Part shown: piece by piece, positions 50,163-62,799 of the stretch
How positions within the stretch are numbered: the stretch's first letter is position 1
Layout: each line of letters opens with the position of its first letter
NCBI GenBank assembly: GCA_038116985.1
Contig: JAYOEZ010000007.1
Location: 624-64,623, forward strand
Reading direction: 5' to 3'
From: Alphaproteobacteria bacterium
GTDB taxonomy: Bacteria; Pseudomonadota; Alphaproteobacteria; SHVP01
Length of the DNA stretch: 64,000 nt
Notes under the pieces: model-generated
Seen by the model: the letters and a program-made list of their open reading frames with translations, nothing else
What the model was told of the DNA's origin: nothing
The model's database searches: none
Made by a program: the position numbers and the translations under genes

Positions 50163-51311
50163 ATGACCGAGAAGGTTGATGTCGTCGTCATCGGCGGCGG
50201 AATCCTCGGCGTTGCGACGGCCTTCGAACTCGCGGCGCTGGACCGTTCCGTGATCTTGCTGGAGGGCAGCAGGCTCGCGTCGGGAACGACCGGCGCCAGC
50301 TTCGCTTGGCTCAACGCCACGGCAAAGGCCGATGACGCGCACTACCACCGGCTCAATGCCGCGGGGCTCCAGCGACACCTGGAACTCGCCGCTCGCTGGG
50401 GAGAACGTCCGGCCGGTCTGGCCGGCGCGGGTTCACTCCACTGGAGCCATCCCGGTGCCGACGACGGCGGACCCGAAGAGGTGCTCGCGCGGGCGACGAC
50501 GCTGGCGGACTGGAACTATCCGGTCGTCCCGTTGGAACGGCGCGAACTCGCGGCGCTCGAACCCTATATCGACTTCCCCGAGGGAAGCGCCGGTTTCCTC
50601 GCGCCGCGCGATCGCTGGCTCGATGCGCCGGCATTCGTGCGCCGCATGGCGGATGAGGCCGCCATGCAGGGCGCCGACATCCGCGAGAGCGCGGCCGTCA
50701 CCGAGTTCGTGTTCGAAGGTGATCGCGTCATCGGAGTCGAGGCGCCGCCGTTTCGCATCATCGCGCAGCATGTGGTGGTGACGGCAGGCACCGCGCTACC
50801 GTCACTCGTGGCGCTGGCGCGTCGCAGCCTGAAGCGCACCCTGTCGTTCCAGGCCGTGCCGGGACTGCTGGTTGACACGGAACCGCAAGAACGCGAATGG
50901 CTTCGGCACGTCGTCTACTTCCCCGACGGCGCCGGCTTTCACATGCGGCCCGCAGGGCGCGGCGCGTTGTCCCTCGGCGCCGACGACATCGACGCCCGGC
51001 ATGGCCGCGAGAGCGCCGATCTGACCGTCGGCGTGACTGCCCTTCTGCAGCGGGCGTCCGTGTTCATGCCCGGCTTTCCGGCGCTCAGGCTCGTCGCCGG
51101 TGTCCATTCGCGGATCGGCGTTCGGCCCATGCCGGGCGACGGCCTGCCCATCGTTGGACCGCTGCCCGACGTACCCGACGTTTATGTTGCGGCGACCCAC
51201 TCGGGCATTACCCTTGGGCCCTACCTCGGGCAGCTGATCGCGCGCGAGATCGCCCTCGGTGAATCGGCCGACGAACTCGCACCTTATCGCCCGGCCCGTT
51301 TTGAGGATTGA
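50163..51311 (+). CDS. FAD-dependent oxidoreductase (DAO / amino-acid or sarcosine oxidase beta-like)
   Basis: 382 aa. VVVIGGGILGVATAFEL (GxGxxG) and the DAO-family C-terminal pattern HSGITLGP. Confidence 0.8.
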   Translation: MTEKVDVVVIGGGILGVATAFELAALDRSVILLEGSRLASGTTGASFAWLNATAKADDAHYHRLNAAGLQRHLELAARWGERPAGLAGAGSLHWSHPGADDGGPEEVLARATTLADWNYPVVPLERRELAALEPYIDFPEGSAGFLAPRDRWLDAPAFVRRMADEAAMQGADIRESAAVTEFVFEGDRVIGVEAPPFRIIAQHVVVTAGTALPSLVALARRSLKRTLSFQAVPGLLVDTEPQEREWLRHVVYFPDGAGFHMRPAGRGALSLGADDIDARHGRESADLTVGVTALLQRASVFMPGFPALRLVAGVHSRIGVRPMPGDGLPIVGPLPDVPDVYVAATHSGITLGPYLGQLIAREIALGESADELAPYRPARFED

Positions 51312-51329
51312 ACCGCGCGGAGGCGCCTT

Positions 51330-52127
51330 GTGAACGATGCAACGAACGAACCCGTCCTGCTCCGGGAGTCCCTCGGTGACGGAATTCTCCGGCTGACGCT
51401 CAACCGGCCGAGGGCGGCCAACAGCCTGAGCCACGAACTGGTGGGCGCGTTGCACGATGCCTTCACGCAGGTCGCCCATGACCGGGACGTCCGTGTCGTG
51501 ATCCTGGCGGGTGCCGGGAAGAACTTCTGTGCCGGCCACGACCTGAACGAGTCGATCGCTGCGGCCAAGGATCCCGCCAGCAAGCGTGCCGCCAACATCG
51601 AGGCGAGCGCGATGATCATGGCCATGCGGCACTGCCCAAAGCCGATCATCGCCCGGGTACATGGCGTGGCGACCGCGGCCGGCTGCCAGCTGGCCGCGAG
51701 TTGCGACCTGGTCTTCGCCACCGCGGACGCGCGTTTTGCGACTCCGGGTGTCAACATCGGCCTGTGGTGTCTCGCGCCCCAGGTCGCGGTCAGCCGTTCC
51801 ATCGCGCCCAAGCACGCGATGCAGATGCTGCTCACCGGAAAGATGATCGACGCCGAAGCCGCGGTGCGTTTCGGCCTTGTGAACGAAGCCGTCGCCGCCG
51901 AGTCCCTGGATGATCGCATCATGGAGATTGCGCGCGAGGTGGCGTCCAAGTCCACCCACGCCGTCGCCATGGGCAAGGACAGCTTCTATCGGCAGCTCGA
52001 AATGGATGAAGTCGATGCCTACGCGATGGTGGACGAACTGATTTACCGCGCCATTCAGTCTGAGGACGCGCAAGAAGGGATTGCCGCGTTCCTCGAAAAG
52101 AGAAGCCCTGCATGGAAGGATCGTTAG
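51330..52127 (+). CDS. enoyl-CoA hydratase/isomerase (crotonase) family protein
   Basis: 265 aa with GTG start. LTLNRPRAANSL, VILAGAGKNFCAGHDL, and GVATAAGCQLAASCDL. Confidence 0.85.
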   Translation: MNDATNEPVLLRESLGDGILRLTLNRPRAANSLSHELVGALHDAFTQVAHDRDVRVVILAGAGKNFCAGHDLNESIAAAKDPASKRAANIEASAMIMAMRHCPKPIIARVHGVATAAGCQLAASCDLVFATADARFATPGVNIGLWCLAPQVAVSRSIAPKHAMQMLLTGKMIDAEAAVRFGLVNEAVAAESLDDRIMEIAREVASKSTHAVAMGKDSFYRQLEMDEVDAYAMVDELIYRAIQSEDAQEGIAAFLEKRSPAWKDR

Positions 52128-52131
52128 AGCG

Positions 52132-52995
52132 ATGACCCAGATCGACGCCACGCCGGAGGTGACCTTCCGTCGTCCTGCCGCCGGCAACTTCCTCGACAAT
52201 CCGCGCGGCTTCTGCCAGCACTATCTGGACTGGTCCGGGAGCGAGCCGCCGATCGTCCTGCTCCACCCCAAGCGCAGCAACGCCCGCCACTGGGATCACA
52301 TGGTCGACGCCCTGGCGTCGCCCAACCGCGTACTCGCGCCCGACGCCCGCGGGCACGGGCTCAGCGACTATCCCGACAGCGGTTATCGCGTGCCCGAACT
52401 TGCCGAGGACGTCGTCGCGTTCCTCGACACCGCGGGCATTGCCCGTGCGGTCTTCGTCGGCGGCGCGACGGGCGGCAACCTGTGCATCTGGCTGGCCGCC
52501 AACCGGCCGGACCGGGTCGCCGGCATCTGCGTCGTCGATCCCGGCATGTCCGTACCAAAGGAGATCGCCGACGAAGTCATTCGCCAGACCCGCGAAGAGC
52601 ACGACTTCCCGGACTTCGCCACCGCCAAGGCGTCGATGCATTTCCAGGACCTGTGGAGCCCGGAGGTGCGCGACCACTACGCCGCGCACAGCTTCCGCGA
52701 GCGCGACGACGGGCGCTGGGCATGGCGCTATGCGGCCGCGCCGGCGCGCACGATCGCGGCCTCGCTCGACGAGGATTCGGTCTGGGACATGGCGGCAGAC
52801 GTGAAGTGCCCCACGGTGCTGGTGCGCGGCGCCACCTCGGCGGTGTTCACCGACGCGCATATGGCGCGTCTCGTCGGGCTGGTCCCGCACGCGCGCGTGG
52901 TTCATCTCGACAAGGCCGAACATACGCCGGCCCAGGAGAACCCGGCCGGCATGGCGGCGGTGGTGGACGACCTCGTTTCTTCGATTGCCGGCTAG
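52132..52995 (+). CDS. alpha/beta-fold protein with atypical elbow G-G-A-T-G-G
   Basis: 287 aa from ATG 52132. IVLLHPKRSNARHW, PDARGHGLSD, FVGGATGGNLCIWLA, VRGATSAVF and KAEHTPAQENP. Paralog of 16180..17016. Confidence 0.8.
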   Translation: MTQIDATPEVTFRRPAAGNFLDNPRGFCQHYLDWSGSEPPIVLLHPKRSNARHWDHMVDALASPNRVLAPDARGHGLSDYPDSGYRVPELAEDVVAFLDTAGIARAVFVGGATGGNLCIWLAANRPDRVAGICVVDPGMSVPKEIADEVIRQTREEHDFPDFATAKASMHFQDLWSPEVRDHYAAHSFRERDDGRWAWRYAAAPARTIAASLDEDSVWDMAADVKCPTVLVRGATSAVFTDAHMARLVGLVPHARVVHLDKAEHTPAQENPAGMAAVVDDLVSSIAG

Positions 52996-53097
52996 TTCAC
53001 GCAACGGGCGCGCGGGACACGCACGCCTGACAATCCGGCTGCGTTGTGGCGCTCTAGGCGCAGCGATGCCTCGCTCAATGAAAGAAGGGAACTCGGC

Positions 53098-53850
53098 ATG
53101 ACGGACGTCCTCGGCTACCGCGCCAAGATCGGCTTGATGGTGCCGTTCACCAACACCAGCGTGCAGCCGGAATTCGAGGCCATCACGCCGGTCGGCGTGA
53201 CCAACCACACGGCGCGCATTCCCAACCGGCCGCGGCCGACCCACAGCGACGAAGCCTATGCCAAGGTGCTGGAGGAGGGGGCGGTCGGCACCGAAGAGGT
53301 GATCGACCGGCTGACCCCGGCCGAGCCCCAGGCCATCATTCTCGGCCACTCCATCGATTCGTTTCGCGGTGGGCTCGAAGGCGGCACAGCCCTGCAGGAA
53401 CGCCTGACGAAACACGCCAGGATCTGCCCCGTGATCGTGCCTTCGCTTGCCCTCAAGAAAGCCGTCGAGGTGCTGGCCGCGCCCGGCTGCCGGGTCTCGG
53501 TCATCACGCCCTACATGACGCCCGGCGGCGACCAGGCCTGCGGCTTCATGGAGAGCGCAGGCTTCAAGCTGATGCGGCGAAAGGACTTCAAGTGCCAGTC
53601 GGCGATCGCGATCGCCGAGGTCACCGAAGACGAGAGCCGTGACGCCATTCGCGAGGTCGACGGCGACGATGTCGACGCCATCGTTCAGTGCGGCACCAAC
53701 CTCGCGTTCCAGCGTGTCGCCGCGGAAGCCGAGCTCTTCCTGCGCAAGCCGGTGCTGTCGATCAACACCGCGACCTACTGGGCCACGCTCCGCCATCTCG
53801 GCATCGACGACAAGCTCAAGGGCTTCGGCACCCTTCTCGAGAAGCACTGA
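53098..53850 (+). CDS. Asp/Glu-racemase superfamily protein (maleate isomerase / arylmalonate decarboxylase-like), single catalytic Cys
   Basis: 250 aa from ATG 53098. IGLMVPFTNTSVQPE and VQCGTNL. The position of the first catalytic Cys of isomerases and racemases appears to read GHSIDS. Confidence 0.65.
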   Translation: MTDVLGYRAKIGLMVPFTNTSVQPEFEAITPVGVTNHTARIPNRPRPTHSDEAYAKVLEEGAVGTEEVIDRLTPAEPQAIILGHSIDSFRGGLEGGTALQERLTKHARICPVIVPSLALKKAVEVLAAPGCRVSVITPYMTPGGDQACGFMESAGFKLMRRKDFKCQSAIAIAEVTEDESRDAIREVDGDDVDAIVQCGTNLAFQRVAAEAELFLRKPVLSINTATYWATLRHLGIDDKLKGFGTLLEKH

Positions 53851-54710
53851 TGACGACCGGGCGCGGCGGTTACGTCGCGACGCGGCACGGGCAAGTTCAC
53901 TTTCGCGAGCTCGGCACGGGCGCGCCGCTCGTTCTCCTGCACGCCACCCCGCGCTCTTCGCGCGTCTATCGCCGGCTCGCGCCGCACCTGGCCGCGCGCC
54001 ACCGCGTCGTGATGCCCGACAATCTCGGTTTCGGGGAATCCGGTCCGCTGCCGCCCGGCGCAACGATGGAAATGCTGGCGGAAGCGATCGCCGACCTGAT
54101 CGACGACCTCGGCATCGGCCCGGTGCCGGTGTTCGGGCTCCACACCGGCAACAAGATCGGCGCGTCGCTGGCCGCCGACTGCCCCGACCGCGTATCGCGC
54201 TTCATCTGCTGCGGCATGACCCACAGCATCGTGGTCGACCGCGCCAAGCGCGATGCCGCGATCCGCGACATCGTCGAAAAGTACTTCGCCAAGGAAGAGG
54301 AATCCGCTGACGGCGCGCACCTACTGCGCGGCTGGGCCAGAACCTTCGAGGGCGTCTCGCGCACCTGGTGGTCGCCTGACGTGACCGACGCGGCGCCCCT
54401 GACCGAGGCCGCGCTCGAGTACGCGGCAGACGAGGTGCTCGACCGCATTCAGGCCCGGGCGTCCTTCGATGCGGTGTACCGTGCCAATTTCGCCTTCGAC
54501 CTGGCCGACGCACTGGGACGCGTTATTGCGCCCACGCTCATCCTTGAACTTGCGACGCCCGGCGAGGCGCATCTCGGGGCCCAGGCCGACGCCTGCGCCG
54601 CGCTCATGCGCGATGCCGCGACCCTCGTTCTCGAAGCCTCAGATCGGGACGTGCTCGAGCGCCACCCCGAACGCCTGGCCACGGCGATCCTCGACTTCCT
54701 CGCGTCATAG
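53850..54710 (+). CDS. single-domain alpha/beta-fold protein with G-L-H-T-G elbow
   Basis: 286 aa. The ATG overlaps the upstream stop (TGATG). LVLLHATPRSS, MPDNLGFGES and VFGLHTGNKIGASLA. Same family as the tandem-domain proteins at 17-29 kb. Confidence 0.8.
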   Translation: MTTGRGGYVATRHGQVHFRELGTGAPLVLLHATPRSSRVYRRLAPHLAARHRVVMPDNLGFGESGPLPPGATMEMLAEAIADLIDDLGIGPVPVFGLHTGNKIGASLAADCPDRVSRFICCGMTHSIVVDRAKRDAAIRDIVEKYFAKEEESADGAHLLRGWARTFEGVSRTWWSPDVTDAAPLTEAALEYAADEVLDRIQARASFDAVYRANFAFDLADALGRVIAPTLILELATPGEAHLGAQADACAALMRDAATLVLEASDRDVLERHPERLATAILDFLAS

Positions 54711-54873: not shown

Positions 54874-54904
54874 ACCAGTCTGCCGATCACGATTATTCCG
54901 GCCT

Positions 54905-55051
54905 CAGCGCTGCAAAGAGGTCGCGTGGCACGACGATGCGCCTGAGGGAAAACTTGACCTGCTGGTCACGCTCGACTTCCGCATGTCGACGACCTGTGTG
55001 TACTCCGACATCGTTCTGCCGACGGCGACCTGGTACGAGAAGAACGATCTC
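54905..55051 (+). pseudogene. internal fragment of a respiratory nitrate reductase alpha subunit (NarG-like molybdopterin oxidoreductase)
   Basis: Reads ...[44 protein letters not shown], close to the conserved NarG segment ...[31 protein letters not shown]. Only ~45 codons with no gene context. Confidence 0.65.
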
Positions 55052-55117
55052 AGATTCCTTCTGTCGAATTACTGCCGTCGTGAGCCGCAGGGGCAAGAAA
55101 CTAGCGCATGTGACGAC

Positions 55118-55300
55118 TTGGAATGGCACTACATCGCTCCGGGCAAGTCGATGCAGAACGGCTTCGTCGAGTCGTTGAGCGGTCGGCTGTAACGAGTGCC
55201 TCAACGAGCATCTGCTCCCGACTCTGCGCCGGGCACGCCCGCTCGTCGACGCGTGGAGGGTCGAGTACAATCTGAACCGAACGCGTTGTCCGTTGGCTTT
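55118..55300 (+). mobile_element. C-terminal fragment of an IS3-family transposase (OrfB integrase core), frameshifted
   Basis: [24 protein letters not shown] then, after a frameshift, ECLNEHLLPTLRRARPLVDAWRVEYNLNR. This is the typical IS3 OrfB C-terminus (PGKP.QNGF.ESFNGR.RDECLNEH...W...YN..RPH). No DDE N-terminal part and no inverted repeats seen. Confidence 0.7.
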
Positions 55301-55368
55301 CCTAGCCGCGAGAAGTCGAGCTCGAAGCCACGCTGATGGGTCCACAGGTCGAGGTCGCGAGAGAGGAA

Positions 55369-56904
55369 TTAGCGCGCCAAAGACGCAGCTTCGCGGCGTT
55401 GATCGGCGAGCGCGCTCAACCGCGCACCTTCCTTGATAGCAACCTTGAACGAACCGAAATAGAAGGACGCTCCCGGTGTTGAGACTTCGTCGAATGACTG
55501 CCGGATGTCAGCATCCAGTGCCCGGCCCTCGGCGCCGTTCTCAAGGATGTGCGCACCTCCACGGCTGACACTCCAGCGATCCATGTCGACTGCGCGGTCG
55601 AGCGGCAGGTGCCGGCCAAGGACTGCGTCGAGTACCTGAGCGCAAGTCGTGGTCTGGCTGATGCCCCCGGGTGAGCAGCATGCCAGGACTTCGTCGGTCC
55701 CGCCGGTGACGATCAGGGGGTTGAGCGTGTGGAATGGCCGGCGCCGGCGCGCGGGCGTGTTGGCGCCGTCGGGATCGAAACACAGCATTCGGTTGTTCAG
55801 GAGAATGCCAGTACCCGGGTCGCAGACTCTGCTGCCGAAAGGCTGGAAGATGCTTTGAAGCAGGCTGGCTGCCTGTCCATCGGACATGACAATCGCAATC
55901 CCTGCGGTATCGCCGCCCTTCGAGGCATGGCGGTTGCCGACCGGTTCTACCGTGCCCTGCAGCACGGCGGCAGCGCGGTTACGAATGTCGTCCGGGCTCG
56001 CGCCGTCGGCCCAGACGTCACGGATTTCACCGCTCCAGCGCTCGAACACCCGGCGTGCCAGCGCCGGATGCTGGACGAACCGGCGCGCCATCGGATCCGC
56101 AGTCCTGTCGTCCTCGCCCAATGCCTTCAACTGGAGGAGACCGAGAAGCCCGACAAACGGCGGCGGCATCGCTGCAATGCGCCAGTCACCATAGGGGCCG
56201 AACAGTGCAGGGACGCGTGCGGCATGGAAGTCGGTGAAGTCGGATTCGGGGACGTCGCGGCCAAGCCTCTTGAGAAAGCGTCTCAGCGAAACGGCCGGCT
56301 TTCCTTCGTAGAACGTGCGCAAGGTCCCCGCTGCCAAACCCTCCAGCGTAGCGGCTAGGGCCGGTTGTGGGATGCGACTGGTGGTGCTGCTGACGCCGTC
56401 GAACATAGTGCCGAAAAACTGTTCGGCGGCGAAATCGTTGCGCCGATCGACCAGATACTTGCGCAGTTCCTTGCCGAGAGGGACCCCGGTCTTCGCGATG
56501 CCGATTGCGGGGGCGAGCAGCGCGCTGAGGTCGCGCCGGCCGTAATCCTCCAGAGCAAGTCGCCACAGATCGACGAGGCCCGGCACCACGCAAGAGCCCG
56601 GGCCTTTTGCGAACGCGGCGGCGTCGTAGGTATTGGACTCCTCACCCATCGCCCAGCCAGCACCGTCGTAGGCGTCGATTGTGCCGTCGCGCCGACGCAC
56701 CAGCATGGCGCCATCGCCGCCCAGAGTGGTCGCCTGCGGGGATACGACGGTGAGAACGGCTGAGGCGGCGACGATCGCCTCGACCAGCGTGGCCCCGTCC
56801 GCGAGCAAGGCATCCGCCGTCTCGGCGGCCAGCGGATGGCCCGCGGCGATAGCCCACTTGCGCCCGGTCGCCGGGGCGCGGGTGGTGTAGTCGGCAAGAG
56901 CCAT
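55369..56904 (-). CDS. gamma-glutamyltransferase-family protein without signal peptide
   Basis: 511 aa. GGDTAGIAIV (Thr nucleophile context), FQPFGS, GILLNNRM, and RRRPFHTLNPLIV. No N-terminal signal sequence. TGATG overlap with the upstream gene. Confidence 0.75.
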   Translation of the reverse strand: MALADYTTRAPATGRKWAIAAGHPLAAETADALLADGATLVEAIVAASAVLTVVSPQATTLGGDGAMLVRRRDGTIDAYDGAGWAMGEESNTYDAAAFAKGPGSCVVPGLVDLWRLALEDYGRRDLSALLAPAIGIAKTGVPLGKELRKYLVDRRNDFAAEQFFGTMFDGVSSTTSRIPQPALAATLEGLAAGTLRTFYEGKPAVSLRRFLKRLGRDVPESDFTDFHAARVPALFGPYGDWRIAAMPPPFVGLLGLLQLKALGEDDRTADPMARRFVQHPALARRVFERWSGEIRDVWADGASPDDIRNRAAAVLQGTVEPVGNRHASKGGDTAGIAIVMSDGQAASLLQSIFQPFGSRVCDPGTGILLNNRMLCFDPDGANTPARRRRPFHTLNPLIVTGGTDEVLACCSPGGISQTTTCAQVLDAVLGRHLPLDRAVDMDRWSVSRGGAHILENGAEGRALDADIRQSFDEVSTPGASFYFGSFKVAIKEGARLSALADQRREAASLAR

Positions 56905-58058
56905 CAGGAGTGGCTCGCGCCAACCTCGATGCCGGCGATGGCGAGGCCGTGGTCGGCGATCCGCATCCGCCTATTCAGTTGTGGAAACGTGCGAAAGGCC
57001 CAGATGATCGGATCGCGCAGCATCCACAATTGCTGCGGCCACTGACGGCTGAAGTAGTCATAGCGCAGCGCCCAGCGCTGGGTGTGGTCCGCAATGAAGC
57101 GGACACCGCGTTCCCACGCCTCCAGCGCTGTTGGCACGTCGGGCTCTCGGTCGAGGAAGTGCACCAGCGAGCGGCCGTCAATGATCGTGATGCCAGCCCC
57201 CTGGCCCAGTGTCGGCGGCATCCCGTGGGCGGCATCACCGATCAGAACGATCCGCCCATGTGCCCATTTGTCGCAGCTAACGACCGAGTAGGGTGCCTGG
57301 AGGACCTCGGCCTCGGCGAACTTCTCGAAGGCCCGGGTCAGGCGTGGAAAGGCGCGGCTCCAATCGTCAATGTCGTTCGGTAGGGCAGCGGCAGTAGAAT
57401 CGTTTGCGGGACAGACCTGATAGACGTAGGTCTCGTTGGCGCCACAGGGAGTGATGCCGATACGGCGACGGCCCGACCAGTTTTCCAGGGTGATGCCGGG
57501 TTCCACGAGTTCCTGGTCCGGCAGCAGGTAGCGATTGATCAGCGTCCCGAGGGTGCGATAGGTCGCCTGGGGCGCGACGCTCCTGCGCACGGCTGAATGG
57601 ACGCCGTCCGCGCCGACGATCAGATCGCCGCGTTCCTGCCCGCCTCCCTGAAGGCGCAGCGTTCCGTCCGTGCCGGCGCCTTCGACTTCGACTCCGGTGT
57701 TGATCTCGACACCGGCCTCGTCCGCAGCCGCCCTAAGACTGTCGACCAGCGCCTGCCGGGGAAAGACGTAGACCCGGTTCTTGCCTGAGTGGTTGTCCCG
57801 GATCTGAAGGACGTTGCCGTCCGCATCCACGACACGCGCGTATTGCAGCGCGGCGCCAAGGGGTTTCAGGCGGTCGAAGACACCCATTTCCTCGAACACT
57901 TCGATGCTGTTGTTCTTGATGTAAATTCCCGCGCCGATTTCGCGAATCACTGGAGAGCGTTCGAACAGCCTGACGTGCCAGTCGCGTTGGGCAAGCAGTG
58001 TGGCCGCAGTCAGTCCGCCGATTCCGCCTCCAGCAACTAGGGCGAGGCGCCCGCTCAT
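56904..58058 (-). CDS. FAD-dependent monooxygenase (salicylate/3-hydroxybenzoate hydroxylase-like)
   Basis: 384 aa from ATG 58058 (ATGA overlap with the RidA-like stop). LALVAGGGIGGLTAA, GADGVHSAVR, and LIGDAAHGMPPTLGQGAG. Confidence 0.85.
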   Translation of the reverse strand: MSGRLALVAGGGIGGLTAATLLAQRDWHVRLFERSPVIREIGAGIYIKNNSIEVFEEMGVFDRLKPLGAALQYARVVDADGNVLQIRDNHSGKNRVYVFPRQALVDSLRAAADEAGVEINTGVEVEGAGTDGTLRLQGGGQERGDLIVGADGVHSAVRRSVAPQATYRTLGTLINRYLLPDQELVEPGITLENWSGRRRIGITPCGANETYVYQVCPANDSTAAALPNDIDDWSRAFPRLTRAFEKFAEAEVLQAPYSVVSCDKWAHGRIVLIGDAAHGMPPTLGQGAGITIIDGRSLVHFLDREPDVPTALEAWERGVRFIADHTQRWALRYDYFSRQWPQQLWMLRDPIIWAFRTFPQLNRRMRIADHGLAIAGIEVGASHS

Positions 58059-58450
58059 CTTGCGGCCTTGGTGCAGTGGGCGACGCACTCGATCTCCAGC
58101 ATCATTCCGTCGATCCCGAGGTCGGTTACCAAGGTCGTACGGCTCGGATAGGGCGCGACGAAGTGTTCCCTGTAGAGGCGGTTCATCGGCTCGAACTGGT
58201 CGCGTTTGGTCAGGATGACCGTGGTCTTGATCACGCGGTCGATCGACGAGCCTCCGGCCTCGAGGACGGCTGTCAAATTTTTCATAACCTGTTTGAACTG
58301 CGCCTCGAAGTCGCCCGGTACGAATGTGCGCTCTTCGTAGTAGGGCGGCATTCCCGAGACGAAGAGCAGGTCGCCGACACGGGTCGCGTGCGACAGCGGC
58401 GAGCGGATGATCGGCAGTTCGTCAGAATGGACGCGGTAGAATTCCGTCAC
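58055..58450 (-). CDS. RidA/YjgF/TdcF-family (enamine/imine deaminase-like) protein
   Basis: 131 aa. LLFVSGMPP, IDRVIKTTVILT, PSRTT..., and MMLEIECVA. Confidence 0.8.
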   Translation of the reverse strand: MTEFYRVHSDELPIIRSPLSHATRVGDLLFVSGMPPYYEERTFVPGDFEAQFKQVMKNLTAVLEAGGSSIDRVIKTTVILTKRDQFEPMNRLYREHFVAPYPSRTTLVTDLGIDGMMLEIECVAHCTKAAR

Positions 58451-58464
58451 GGCAAGTCCTGTTT

Positions 58465-59544
58465 CTAGTATGTCATTCCCTGCAAGGCACGCACTGCGCC
58501 CGAAGCCAGCAACGGATGCCCCCCGTGCTTGTCCCGGAGGGTGTCGCCGTCGAGCGTAGCAAGCGCCGCGGCGGCTTCGGCGCCGATGCCGTAGTCGGTG
58601 GCAAAGGCTTGCGGGTCGGTGCGGTATCGCTCTCGCGCCTCCTCGAAATTACGCAAGGCAAACAGCGCCCGATTCAGCGCGGCGTTCTCGGCGCGAATGG
58701 GCGGGTAGTAGTCCCGCCCGGCAAGGGCGTCGGTTGACTCCTCGTCCTTGGTCCAGCAGACAGCCGCATAGGTATGGTGCCAGTTGTCCTCGAAGGCCGC
58801 GATCCGTTCAGTACCGTTCCCGAATAGCCCCGCCAGCATGGCCCACGACCTGAGCTCGACATTGCCGGTCTGCTCGGCGCCGGCGCCGTCAAGCCAGGTT
58901 GCATAACGTGGCCCGTGGCGTCGCACGCCGTCGAAAAAACTGCGGTCGAAGTCCAGGTCCGGTCCGGGTTTCGCGTAGCGCGCAGTGCCGGGGTAGTGCG
59001 ACAGGCCGCCGCTCGCGATGACCGCTGCCTTGAGTTCCATACGCTGCAGGACGCCTTCCAGCGCGCGTCCGAATGTCGCGCAGCGCTGAAGGGTCGGCTG
59101 GGGCGGCATGTAACTGTTGATCAGAATCGGTAAGGCCGGGATCTCCTGAGGCAATTCTAGAAATGCGATCGGAATCGAGACATACGTGCCCAAACTGACA
59201 TCGCTGCCAAATGCTGGATCGCAATCGGCCTCGTACAGGCCCGCCACGATGTTCAATGCGCGGTCGCCCATCAACGGCCACGCGAAGTCGGTCAGCCGGT
59301 TGCCTTCTTCGAACCGGTTGCCACAATGAACGTAAAATGGTGGGACGACAGTCGTGGCAAAGTTGTCGCCGTGGTCGTTGCACAAGACAACCAGCACATC
59401 TACGTCAGCCTCAGCGACCAGTTTGCCGATCGTTCTGTAGGCTTCCTTGACGCGCTCGACCTGATTGGCGTCCTCCGAATCCGGAACCGAAAGGAGTTGC
59501 GGTGCGTGGGGCACCGCAGCGGCGACAGGAACAGTGACGGGCAT
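58465..59544 (-). CDS. class III extradiol ring-cleavage dioxygenase, LigB-like catalytic domain fused to a LigA-like C-terminal domain
   Basis: 359 aa. VPHAPQL, VLCNDHGDNF, and ASGGLSHYPG (LigB family). The C-terminal ~90 aa (NRALFALRNFEEARERYRTDPQAFATDYGI...) resembles the small LigA subunit, as in gallate-dioxygenase-type fusions. Confidence 0.75.
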   Translation of the reverse strand: MPVTVPVAAAVPHAPQLLSVPDSEDANQVERVKEAYRTIGKLVAEADVDVLVVLCNDHGDNFATTVVPPFYVHCGNRFEEGNRLTDFAWPLMGDRALNIVAGLYEADCDPAFGSDVSLGTYVSIPIAFLELPQEIPALPILINSYMPPQPTLQRCATFGRALEGVLQRMELKAAVIASGGLSHYPGTARYAKPGPDLDFDRSFFDGVRRHGPRYATWLDGAGAEQTGNVELRSWAMLAGLFGNGTERIAAFEDNWHHTYAAVCWTKDEESTDALAGRDYYPPIRAENAALNRALFALRNFEEARERYRTDPQAFATDYGIGAEAAAALATLDGDTLRDKHGGHPLLASGAVRALQGMTY

Positions 59545-60029: not shown

Positions 60030-60057
60030 AATTCCCTGTTGAGGGTAGCAGGGAATT
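60030..60057. repeat. perfect 9-bp inverted repeat AATTCCCTG-N10-CAGGGAATT
   Basis: Read directly. Shares the TTCCCTGTT core with 59988..59996 and 60130..60138. Confidence 0.8.
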
Positions 60058-60129
60058 CGCCGCTAAAGCACTGAAATTGGAGCCGTATTGGGGCACAACG
60101 CGTTCTCAGAGACCCAAGATCTGCTGCAA

Positions 60130-60159
60130 TTCCCTGTTAATTCGCTGATAAACAGGGAA
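60130..60159. repeat. inverted repeat TTCCCTGTT-N12-AACAGGGAA enclosing TTCGCTGATA
   Basis: Read directly. The inner TTCGCTGATA (60141..60150) also occurs at 60010..60019. Confidence 0.8.
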
Positions 60160-60241
60160 CAGCTACCAGAGACTGGTTCGATCCAGACTGCAAGCACCAC
60201 CACAATGCGTCGCAAGTTGAGGCGGGAGGGAGCGTCAACGA

Positions 60242-61649: not shown

Positions 61650-61819
61650 GAGATCCTCCTTCAAGTGCGGACTCGGTTGGGTTCTGGATATTTCCCAACC
61701 GGTACCCCCGCCGCGCCCGCGAGTCGTTGCGTGCGATCAATCGGCGGTCGCCGGATTTGGTGTGGCTGGGCAGCGCGCGCGGTTCGGAGCGGCTAGACTT
61801 CTACCTGAGGAGACGCTCC

Positions 61820-62302
61820 ATGCCGCCTGCCGTTGCCCCGCTCGAAACCTCGTTCCTGACTCACTTCGTCATCGAAGCGATGCCGGGCCTGGAAATCGGC
61901 AAGCCGCCGGCCGGCTGGCGGCGGGTCGATCGCATCCTGAAGGGGACGTTCGAAGGGCCGCGGCTGTCTGGCGAGATCGTCACCGGGACCGATCCCGTTC
62001 TGGTCATGCGCGACGATTCGGCCCGGCTCGACGTCCGCATGGTGCTGCGCACGACCGACGACGTCCTCATCCAGATGACCTATGACGGCATCGTCGCCGG
62101 ATCGCGCGACGTCATGAAGCGTATCGGCCGCCGCGAGGCGGTGGACGCAAGCGAGTACTACCTGCGCACCGCCGTCGCCTTTGAGGCCGCCGATCCGCGC
62201 TATGAATGGCTCAACGGCGCGCTCGCCGTGGCGACGGGACGCCTGCTAGTGTTCCCGAACGGCGCCTTCGGCGATCACTACAACGTCTACCTCGTGCACT
62301 AG
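61820..62302 (+). CDS. DUF3237-like beta-barrel protein (copy 1)
   Basis: 160 aa from ATG 61820 (GAGGAG RBS). GKPPAGWRRVDRILKGTFEGPRLSGEIV...ARLDVRMVLRTTDDVLIQMTYDG. Confidence 0.65.
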   Translation: MPPAVAPLETSFLTHFVIEAMPGLEIGKPPAGWRRVDRILKGTFEGPRLSGEIVTGTDPVLVMRDDSARLDVRMVLRTTDDVLIQMTYDGIVAGSRDVMKRIGRREAVDASEYYLRTAVAFEAADPRYEWLNGALAVATGRLLVFPNGAFGDHYNVYLVH

Positions 62303-62313
62303 GAGGCATTGTG

Positions 62314-62799
62314 ATGGATGACCGGCAAGCGCCGTTGGCGAGCGAATATCTGATGACCTTGGACATGCAGGCGATGCCGGGTCTCGACATCGGCAAGACA
62401 CCGCGCGGTTGGCGCCGCATCGACCGGATCGCGCAAGGCACGGTCGAGGGACCGAAACTGCGCGGCACCGTCGTCACGGCGACCGACCACCTCCTGGTGC
62501 ACCGCGACGATTCGGCCCACCCCGACGTGCGCCTCGTCCTCGAAACCGACGACGGCGCCCTGATCCAGGTGACCTACAAGGGCGTCGTGACCGGCCCCAC
62601 GGAGGTGATGAAGGCGCTCGGTCGCCGCGAGGACGTGTCGGGCGAGGCCTACTACATGCGCAACGCGCTCTTCTTCGAGGTCGCGATGGACAGTCCCTAC
62701 GCCTGGCTCAACAACGTTCTTGCCGTCGGGCGCGGCGCGGTGCGCATTCTCGATGGTGGGGCCTTCGGCGTCCGCTATGAGGTGTTCCGCATCCTCTAG
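62314..62799 (+). CDS. DUF3237-like beta-barrel protein (copy 2)
   Basis: 161 aa from ATG 62314 (AGGAGG RBS, 11 nt after the previous stop). GKTPRGWRRIDRIAQGTVEGPKLRGTVV...AHPDVRLVLETDDGALIQVTYKG. Confidence 0.65.
   Translation: MDDRQAPLASEYLMTLDMQAMPGLDIGKTPRGWRRIDRIAQGTVEGPKLRGTVVTATDHLLVHRDDSAHPDVRLVLETDDGALIQVTYKGVVTGPTEVMKALGRREDVSGEAYYMRNALFFEVAMDSPYAWLNNVLAVGRGAVRILDGGAFGVRYEVFRIL

Follow-up and report, generated by a model that had tools for sequence, protein, structure and literature searches.

An operon of four minus-strand genes was analysed in a 64,000-nucleotide stretch of contig JAYOEZ010000007.1 (assembly GCA_038116985.1); this whole stretch is referred to as the window, and all positions are those of the window. 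The four open reading frames (Table 1) were found as an earlier note on this DNA had described them, with exact junctions consisting of a 14-nt gap at 58451-58464, an ATGA overlap at 58055-58058 and a TGATG overlap at 56902-56906. The gene families named there were likewise recovered, as evident from matches to the Pfam families LigB, Ribonuc_L-PSP, FAD_binding_3 and G_glu_transpept; none of the four proteins scored high enough to be assigned to a named NCBIfam function. All four genes are single-copy in their own genome (88.5% complete), and three have distant paralogs only. Scanning of the block for sigma-70 signals revealed no promoter-like site (0.8 expected) and three terminator-like sites (3.7 expected).

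Table 1. Predicted genes of the operon and features adjoining it in the window.
Feature	Position	Strand	Remarks
LigB-type extradiol dioxygenase, LigA-like C-terminal fusion, DesB-like architecture	58465..59544	-	359 aa
Rid (YjgF/RidA) family enamine/imine deaminase	58055..58450	-	131 aa, GTG start
Group A flavoprotein monooxygenase, MHPCO-like clade	56904..58058	-	384 aa from ATG at 58058
GGT-fold N-terminal nucleophile (Ntn) amidohydrolase, HpxW/YwrD type	55369..56904	-	511 aa
Scar between tRNA and operon: narG fragment in-frame with a frameshifted integrase-core (rve_3) remnant	54874..55368	.	
tRNA, CAT anticodon	54797..54873	+	Met per ARAGORN

The dioxygenase matched Pfam LigB with E 3e-20. 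Its LigA-like C-terminus was recognised weakly (residues 290-336, E 0.011), and such a C-terminus was found at E <= 1 in 36 of 51 family members (best 7.5e-8); since the structure model (mean predicted local distance difference test, pLDDT, 92) aligned full-length to the fusion protein DesB, the LigB-LigA fusion claimed previously was retained, with the protein's own LigA match being weak. The fold ranking of the model was headed by DesB (Z 29), followed by LigB (Z 28, root-mean-square deviation 3.0 over 263 residues) and MhpB and then by the aminophenol dioxygenases; with AmnB at Z 23 versus 28-29 for DesB and LigB, the aminophenol precedent named previously was not supported by the fold. H13, H58, H183 and E230 were invariant in all 51 homologs, and the last three align with LigB H61, H195 and E242; we take H13, H58 and E230 to be the His-His-Glu metal (Fe) ligands and H183 the catalytic base. 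At the position of the DHG-motif His of LigB, placed at 118 or 120 by alignments to PDB entries, the 51 homologs have L, I or V at 118 and T, Y or S at 120, and W255-H256-H257 is invariant among them. The lost DHG His together with the invariant W-H-H marks the dioxygenase as a separate subfamily, in line with its scores below the curated subfamily cut-offs (best NCBIfam match 63.5 versus 290; gallate dioxygenase 34 versus 412). The protein belongs to the type II (LigB) extradiol dioxygenases by its fold and its retained metal and base positions, and Fe(II)-dependent ring cleavage is predicted for it. A relationship to NicX/PicD was ruled out by an hhalign probability of 0.1%.

For the flavoprotein, the best PDB match was MHPCO (E 3e-46; next family 1.5e-22), presumably EC 1.14.13.242, with a Foldseek template-modelling (TM) score of 0.81 at 33% identity. 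R176, R199, Y211 and Y257 align with MHPCO R181, R211, Y223 and Y270; among 52 homologs, R176 and Y211 were invariant, R199 was conserved in 51 and Y257 in 46. These residues and Y82 have roles in the substrate site of MHPCO; the Y82 position is Y73 in the window protein, and 27 of the 52 homologs have R there and 7 have Y. Extra basic positions were found in K48 (K or R in 52/52), R87 and R95 (both 52/52), which would suit a second carboxylate on the substrate. MHPCO attacks ortho to the hydroxyl group and para to the carboxylate; C5 of a 6-hydroxypicolinate stands in just this relation to its two substituents. According to the accessible part of PMC9838390, MHPCO opens the pyridine ring, and its relative KnmB1 (45%) turns a 5-hydroxypicolinyl ring into the 5,6-diol, leaving the ring closed. 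No B6-degradation genes were seen among the annotated conserved neighbours of the block.

The small protein is, as judged from its fold and a conserved Arg, a member of the Rid family (Pfam E 1e-21), and it scored below the NCBIfam cut-offs. All 24 members of its cluster have this Arg, R104 of the P[SA]R motif; in Rid proteins it has a role in imino-acid hydrolysis. A parallel drawn before to the 2-aminomuconate deaminase found little echo, the match to that enzyme (E 1.3e-9) being no closer than that to generic Rid proteins (best 9e-23).

The hydrolase of gamma-glutamyltransferase (GGT) fold matched its Pfam family at E 2e-66 and did not reach the cut-off of canonical gamma-glutamyltransferase (174.7 versus 357.85 bits). 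Its small subunit was best matched by 5hft_B (E 1.3e-13; next 1.4e-8), the oxamate amidohydrolase HpxW, as entered in the accessible part of PMC12360370. HpxW-type motifs are present (QS, NR, RPFHTLNP and GG..Q), and the protein reads NNRMLCF and RPFHTL where Bacillus GGT has NNE..DF and RPLSSM. The predicted nucleophile is T334, with Thr at this position in all 32 aligned GGTs of the clusters. Inspection of the N-terminus by eye showed no hydrophobic signal stretch, in agreement with the description of a signal-less enzyme. The protein is predicted to be a cytoplasmic HpxW/YwrD-type Ntn amidohydrolase, for which autoprocessing and hydrolysis of oxamate would be expected.

The recurrence of the gene set was followed at several levels. 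Two of seven same-genus genomes (G004 and G007) had a strong match to the dioxygenase, compared with none of nine other genomes of the family, and both carry the four genes in the same order at identities of 58/76-77/77-79/52-55%. A scan of GTDB gave 329 dioxygenase relatives, of which the best 80 were kept as genome loci; the counts at these dioxygenase loci are based on tblastn with a GGT threshold of 45 bits and include distant GGT lineages. The flavoprotein was found at 16 of the 80 loci, GGT at 30, Rid at 26 and a molybdenum (Mo) hydroxylase at 33, with flavoprotein, GGT and Rid together at 12, so that the four genes do co-occur elsewhere. Among the 26 loci of at least 11 kb with both dioxygenase and flavoprotein, again counted by tblastn, a Mo hydroxylase was present in 24, GGT in 20 and a deaminase in 24; this last slot is filled by a RidA-like protein (16), a second YjgF type (5) or CnbZ (3, scoring above the NCBIfam cut-off), which are mutually exclusive. 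In metagenome loci anchored on the flavoprotein and having at least 2.6 kb upstream, the dioxygenase occurred in 15/24 when the flavoprotein was at least 45% identical and in 0/9 below 45%. Within the class, 9 of 401 genomes hold the dioxygenase family; the six genomes scoring above 500 bits with the cluster-GGT profile (next score 441) and the five best flavoprotein genomes are all among these nine. The flavoprotein profile had no match in any of five genomes with a solitary dioxygenase, in a search run without a positive control. The full cluster is carried by the cultured strains Pigmentiphaga kullae K24, Verticiella sediminum DSM 27279 and Paracandidimonas soli DSM 100048.

Gene calling was geared to the codon usage of high-GC DNA, and most genes of about a dozen low-GC loci escaped it; these loci enter the dioxygenase tree as misses. 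Trees were calculated with FastTree and midpoint-rooted, contain no characterised references and bear pic labels derived from gene content. In four marine Rhodospirillaceae-type loci (L040, L046, L049 and L063), the dioxygenase stands alone between ssb/gyrA and uvrA, as these genes were named from their sequences. Both genomes examined, those of L049 and L063, carry a cluster-type GGT at a separate site beside an amidohydrolase and a D-serine-dehydratase-like gene. A class II aldolase-like gene next to the dioxygenase in marine loci resembles PhtC below the PhtC cut-off.

In clusters of Alcaligenaceae and Ralstonia, the gene order was found to be Rid, TctC, Mo large, medium and small subunits, dioxygenase, flavoprotein, CoxG, GGT and FAH, with variations. 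The Mo large subunit of these clusters has quinoline 2-oxidoreductase as best PDB match and is sister (44-45% identity; FastTree support 1.0 for the joint clade) to a group with the Mo subunits of two pic-type clusters, identified by the pic gene list of Alcaligenes faecalis JQ135 in the accessible part of 10.1101/530550. Two loci of Achromobacter type (L075 and L077) encode a phthalate-4,5-dioxygenase-like Rieske protein, with a reductase in L075, and a 4,5-dihydroxyphthalate-dehydrogenase-like protein (E 2e-94), and neither a Mo nor a flavoprotein gene was seen at either locus. This implies that one dihydroxylation replaces the Mo enzyme and the flavoprotein and that the product is a vicinal diol. 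Neither of the two conserved Rieske oxygenases occurs at any of the 16 flavoprotein loci; an unrelated flavoprotein lies 5 kb away at the Rieske locus L010. Seven dioxygenase loci contain a 4,5-dihydroxyphthalate-decarboxylase-like gene (E 2e-99) and seven of the 80 contain UbiD. Actinobacterial loci add an aldehyde dehydrogenase and, at 2 of the 80 loci, an aspartate-dehydrogenase-like gene, in agreement with iminoaspartate as the end product. The thiamine-pyrophosphate (TPP) enzyme of two loci was considered as an oxalyl-CoA decarboxylase, which was excluded by NCBIfam.

Further Mo and Rieske genes were noted in the same search. At L010, L011, L013, L014 and L020, the dioxygenase lies beside a phthalate-type Rieske gene (not seen at L020, a shorter locus), a different, lone Mo large subunit, and FrsA-like and dienelactone hydrolases. 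L176 (G046:C4:203000-222900) is an uncharacterised Mo-hydroxylase cluster close to PicA with genes for a TPP enzyme, aldehyde dehydrogenase, hydantoinase/oxoprolinase A/B, Rid, TctC, Mo large, medium and small subunits and CoxG. PicA-related Mo large subunits stand beside genes for an amidohydrolase and AllG (oxamate carbamoyltransferase subunit) at L179 and L181. The genome of the window itself has three tandem Mo-hydroxylase large subunits at C1:173521-180688, an arrangement repeated in G004 and G007.

Beyond the genes, families, conserved residues and co-occurrences observed, we infer reactions and substrate from gene context, and in this light the operon very probably is the conserved core of a pathway opening a pyridine-type ring of some kind. 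Pyridine carboxylates are proposed as the substrate because of the conserved neighbours. More specifically, we give an even chance to an aza-protocatechuate type of meta-cleavage of pyridine-2-carboxylates, consisting of 5,6-diol formation, C4-C5 cleavage, oxalate release and deamination; quinolinate as the specific entry compound is a tentative and rather doubtful choice. Hydroxylation followed by extradiol cleavage and deamination of an enamine, the general scheme put forward in the earlier note, fits the conserved gene set.

In the proposed route, the MHPCO-like flavoprotein would add a hydroxyl group beside the existing one of a hydroxylated picolinate-type acid, most likely 6-hydroxyquinolinate or 6-hydroxypicolinate, to give a 5,6-diol; the same kind of diol could arise from 6-hydroxy-2,5-pyridinedicarboxylate, with loss of CO2, or from 5-hydroxypicolinate. 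The LigB-LigA dioxygenase would cut the C4-C5 bond, which is the position used by LigAB in protocatechuate, to yield N-oxalyl-2-amino-4-oxo-butenoate. Oxalate would be taken off by the HpxW-like Ntn hydrolase, and the Rid protein would hydrolyse the 2-imino acid to a 2,4-dioxo acid of the formylpyruvate type and ammonia. In fuller clusters, the PicA-related Mo hydroxylase would supply the 6-hydroxyl group at the carbon next to nitrogen, and cleavage of the dioxo acid, with formylpyruvate giving formate and pyruvate, probably falls to the FAH-family protein. The vicinal diol could be produced either by the Mo enzyme and the flavoprotein (ortho) or by Rieske dihydroxylation and a dehydrogenase. 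Such a 5,6-diol of a pyridine-2-carboxylate would be the aza-analogue of protocatechuate; the corresponding diol of quinolinate, 5,6-dihydroxyquinolinate, is by chemical reasoning an exact aza counterpart of 4,5-dihydroxyphthalate. Splitting of the C4-C5 bond to yield an N-oxalyl enamino acid would explain the oxamate-amidohydrolase-like enzyme and the obligatory imino-acid deaminase as well as the downstream FAH, or aldehyde dehydrogenase plus aspartate dehydrogenase. With a chance somewhat short of even, the scheme may extend to a funnel in which quinolinate, 2,5-pyridinedicarboxylate and picolinate converge on 5,6-dihydroxypicolinate-type diols, as phthalates do on protocatechuate, with a new LigB-LigA subfamily opening the ring, a GGT-fold N-oxalyl amidohydrolase acting on the product and interchangeable deaminases releasing ammonia.

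Several observations weigh against the aza-protocatechuate route. The LigB DHG-motif His is absent in all 51 dioxygenase homologs, so that catechol-type chemistry is not assured, and R176, R199 and Y211 of the flavoprotein are also kept in MHPCO-like proteins without an adjoining dioxygenase, which implies that these residues mark the clade, not the reaction. Many of the loci are kin or duplicates (seven are Pigmentiphaga-type; L037 equals L127); the profiles behind the counts in 401 genomes contain the window's own proteins, and the six GGT genomes represent two families only, that GGT missing in three of the nine dioxygenase genomes. Genes for a transporter, a regulator and an FAH protein are missing from the window block. 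Its genome, G004 and G007 also have no counterpart orthologous to the Mo enzyme of the clusters, the best Mo matches there being 33-36% identical versus 47-68% among cluster orthologs, so that the block must begin at an acid that already bears a hydroxyl group or make use of a general Mo enzyme. Orthologs of PicA1, PicB1 and PicD were not found in the window's genome at its 88.5% completeness, where the best identities were 31-33% for PicA1, 27% full-length (43% over 210 aa) for PicB1, 26% for PicC and none for PicD. In two genomes this cluster coexists with a pic cluster, and the substrate is therefore probably a picolinate analogue, not plain picolinate. Finally, in five Stellaceae-type loci (L051, L052, L074, L083 and L087), the dioxygenase directly follows PicB1/B2 orthologs (67-72% and 54-60% identity), neither a deaminase nor a GGT is present at any of them, and PicB makes the 3,6-diol, not the 5,6-diol, according to the accessible part of 10.1101/530550.

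These PicB-linked loci are consistent with a para-diol alternative, which we nevertheless regard as unlikely for the block. Here, a PicB-like flavoprotein would form 3,6-dihydroxypicolinate, possibly with CO2 loss from 6-hydroxyquinolinate, and the dioxygenase would cut C2-C3 to N-oxalylmaleamate in replacement of PicC and PicD, with the GGT-like enzyme removing oxalate. It is favoured by the divergence of the dioxygenase active site from LigB and by searches of four PicB-linked genomes, which revealed no close PicC (best 43-50% versus 75% in a pic genome) and no close PicD (best 46%; no match in two of the four), with a cluster-type GGT at another place in one genome. However, a para-diol gives no enamine and leaves the deaminase slot, filled at 24 of the 26 flavoprotein loci, unexplained; the loci with a cis-diol dehydrogenase point to a vicinal diol, and since the PicB-linked dioxygenases form a separate branch of the dioxygenase tree, the alternative may apply to this branch alone. 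Its enzymes may cleave 3,6-dihydroxypicolinate, and the PicB-linked loci, which have a 4,5-dihydroxyphthalate-decarboxylase-like gene after PicB1/B2 and the dioxygenase in the four whose contig extends further (L052, L074, L083 and L087), are possibly a second new picolinate route. Improbable in our view is an MHPCO-type direct opening, in which the flavoprotein itself would convert a 3-hydroxypyridine (di)carboxylate, such as 3-hydroxydipicolinate, to an N-acyl enamine, the GGT-like and Rid proteins would turn the latter into oxalate, ammonia and a 2-oxo acid, and a parallel substrate would be left to the dioxygenase. MHPCO, by far the closest solved structure, does open a pyridine ring, and 20 of 56 flavoprotein-clade loci, some of them long enough to hold one, lack the dioxygenase, which also counts against the aza-protocatechuate route. 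Against direct opening stand the 33% identity and the variable Y82 position, and Rieske systems can replace the flavoprotein with dioxygenase and GGT staying together, which argues for the flavoprotein being a hydroxylase upstream of the dioxygenase.

A bicyclic N-heterocycle of the quinaldate/kynurenate/xanthurenate or 2-oxoquinoline type would have its benzene-ring diol cleaved by the dioxygenase and the remaining pyridone opened by the amidohydrolase and then deaminated; we give this little chance. It would agree with quinoline 2-oxidoreductase as best PDB match of the Mo subunit and with the logic of quinoline catabolism, in which a Mo enzyme is followed by Rieske plus dehydrogenase or by FAD enzymes and then by extradiol cleavage. 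Kynurenate degradation runs via a 7,8-diol. Yet the Mo subunit is nearer to pic-type subunits than to quinoline 2-oxidoreductase, complete clusters lack the extra side-chain enzymes that such a route needs, and PicB orthologs and dihydroxyphthalate-type decarboxylases are linked to the dioxygenase. Least probable, and in our estimation very unlikely, is the gamma-glutamyl-arylamine route of the earlier note, in which a de-glutamylated arylamine would be hydroxylated to an aminophenol, cleaved in the meta manner and deaminated as aminomuconate. In its favour, aminophenol dioxygenases of LigB type are known, as are aminomuconate deaminases of Rid or CnbZ type, CnbZ occurs at three loci, and position 120, the DHG-His site by alignment to MhpB, is Tyr in 8 of 51 dioxygenases, as it is in AmnB. 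Its premise of a gamma-glutamyl substrate met with HpxW-type motifs in the GGT-like protein and with no extra glutamine-synthetase-like (GS-like) partner in G004 (99% complete) and G007 (100%), each of which has a single GS-family gene on another contig; the window's own assembly (88.5% complete) has no GS match at all and is hence uninformative. De-glutamylation as the first step also fails to suit the HpxW-like small subunit, which lacks glutamate-binding motifs, and aniline-type gamma-glutamylation relies on a GS-like synthase and a glutamine-amidotransferase-like (GAT-like) hydrolase, not a GGT, in the accessible part of PMC11335346. Moreover, 24 of the 26 loci have a Mo hydroxylase, AmnB is not the closest fold, and most proteobacterial flavoprotein clusters are devoid of a semialdehyde dehydrogenase (L081 has one nearby).

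Set beside known systems, the dioxygenase of the aza-protocatechuate proposal shares with LigAB and DesB the type II fold and the metal and base positions, DesB also being a LigB-LigA fusion, and is set apart by a structural identity of 17-19%, the missing DHG His and the new invariant WHH. In contrast to protocatechuate 4,5-cleavage with its lactone route, an amidohydrolase and a deaminase follow in the block, and the clusters have a Mo hydroxylase; phthalate-type upper enzymes, as in the phthalate 4,5-dioxygenase/dehydrogenase/decarboxylase system, occur in some cluster variants. MHPCO, KnmB1 and CaeB6 are closest to the flavoprotein in fold and sequence, with the four aligned substrate-site positions kept, and are set apart by low identity, the variable Y82 position, the three extra basic positions and the missing B6-pathway neighbours. 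The GGT-like protein has in common with HpxW (5HFT) and YwrD the lack of a signal stretch, the Thr nucleophile and the motifs QS, NR and FHTLNP; it is distinguished from HpxW by the low similarity of the two proteins overall (small subunit E 1e-13), by the lack of neighbours from purine catabolism and by an N-substituted oxamate as proposed substrate. AmnAB, AmnD and CnbZ follow a similar logic of type II dioxygenase and enamine deaminase, whereas the block, unlike AmnAB and the aniline systems AtdA/NpaA, combines a single fused dioxygenase with an HpxW-type hydrolase and, in the clusters, a Mo hydroxylase. The block also differs from AtdA/NpaA in that neither a GS-like nor a GAT-like gene belongs to it; the search for GAT-like genes did not extend over whole genomes, and GS-like genes across 160 loci were covered only through the annotation of the commoner neighbour clusters.

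According to the accessible part of 10.1101/530550, the pic cluster of A. faecalis JQ135 degrades picolinate via 3,6-dihydroxypicolinate, 2,5-dihydroxypyridine and maleamate, and there are degraders of picolinate that lack pic genes. The sister-clade Mo hydroxylase with CoxG, and PicB1/B2 beside the dioxygenase at five loci, recall this cluster; PicC, PicD (NicX), PicE, PicF and PicG are absent from the block, and its dioxygenase is unrelated to PicD. The dip route for dipicolinate in the same strain needs no Mo cofactor, as far as the accessible part of PMC11472048 goes. All parts of the block belong to known superfamilies; their combination and the proposed chemistry appear to be new. No description of the gene set was found in the open literature, and with subscription papers largely outside the scope, 'undescribed' is provisional; papers on gene clusters for quinolinate and 2,5-pyridinedicarboxylate, which reportedly exist, did not turn up in this search. 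If true, the proposal would provide a second ring-opening route besides pic, and the funnel would mean that a LigB-type enzyme opens the pyridine ring without recourse to the maleamate pathway. The proposal would assign a function to three unannotated families, namely the dioxygenase subfamily (329 relatives in GTDB), the MHPCO-like flavoprotein clade and the HpxW-like GGT clade, currently annotated as gamma-glutamyltransferase, and would bear on what happens in water and soil to quinolinate and picolinate derived from tryptophan and NAD, as well as on the biodegradation of pyridine-dicarboxylate plastic monomers.

The operon had also been placed in a probable island next to the tRNA, a claim that held in part. 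It is supported by the tRNA, the scar, a lower GC content at third codon positions (0.74-0.82 in the block versus 0.79-0.89 in eight flanking genes, with overall GC barely shifted) and flanks that are not alike among G004, G007 and locus L089; it is opposed by the lack of an integrase gene in the window between 46 and 64 kb and of a repeat of the tRNA end (att) on the contig. The block thus looks acquired, rather than part of an intact island. In the scar, the narG part extends over about 54910-55050 (E 4e-22), the rve_3 matches have E 2e-6 and 7e-5, and a weak IS3 match on the minus strand has E 0.11; the scar matches another contig of the same genome at 91% DNA identity. The sequence of the CAT-anticodon tRNA resembles what we take to be a lysidine-type tRNA-Ile2.

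Upstream of the operon, about 150 bases (60048-60203) showed 71-77% identity to non-coding stretches on two other contigs, possibly representing a repeat or the end of a mobile element. The run beyond the tRNA on the plus strand (50163-54710), absent from the block's conserved neighbours, comprises a DAO-type oxidoreductase, an enoyl-CoA hydratase, two alpha/beta hydrolases and an arylmalonate-decarboxylase/maleate-isomerase-like gene. A tandem pair of DUF3237 genes, 69% similar in DNA sequence, lies at 61727-62799.

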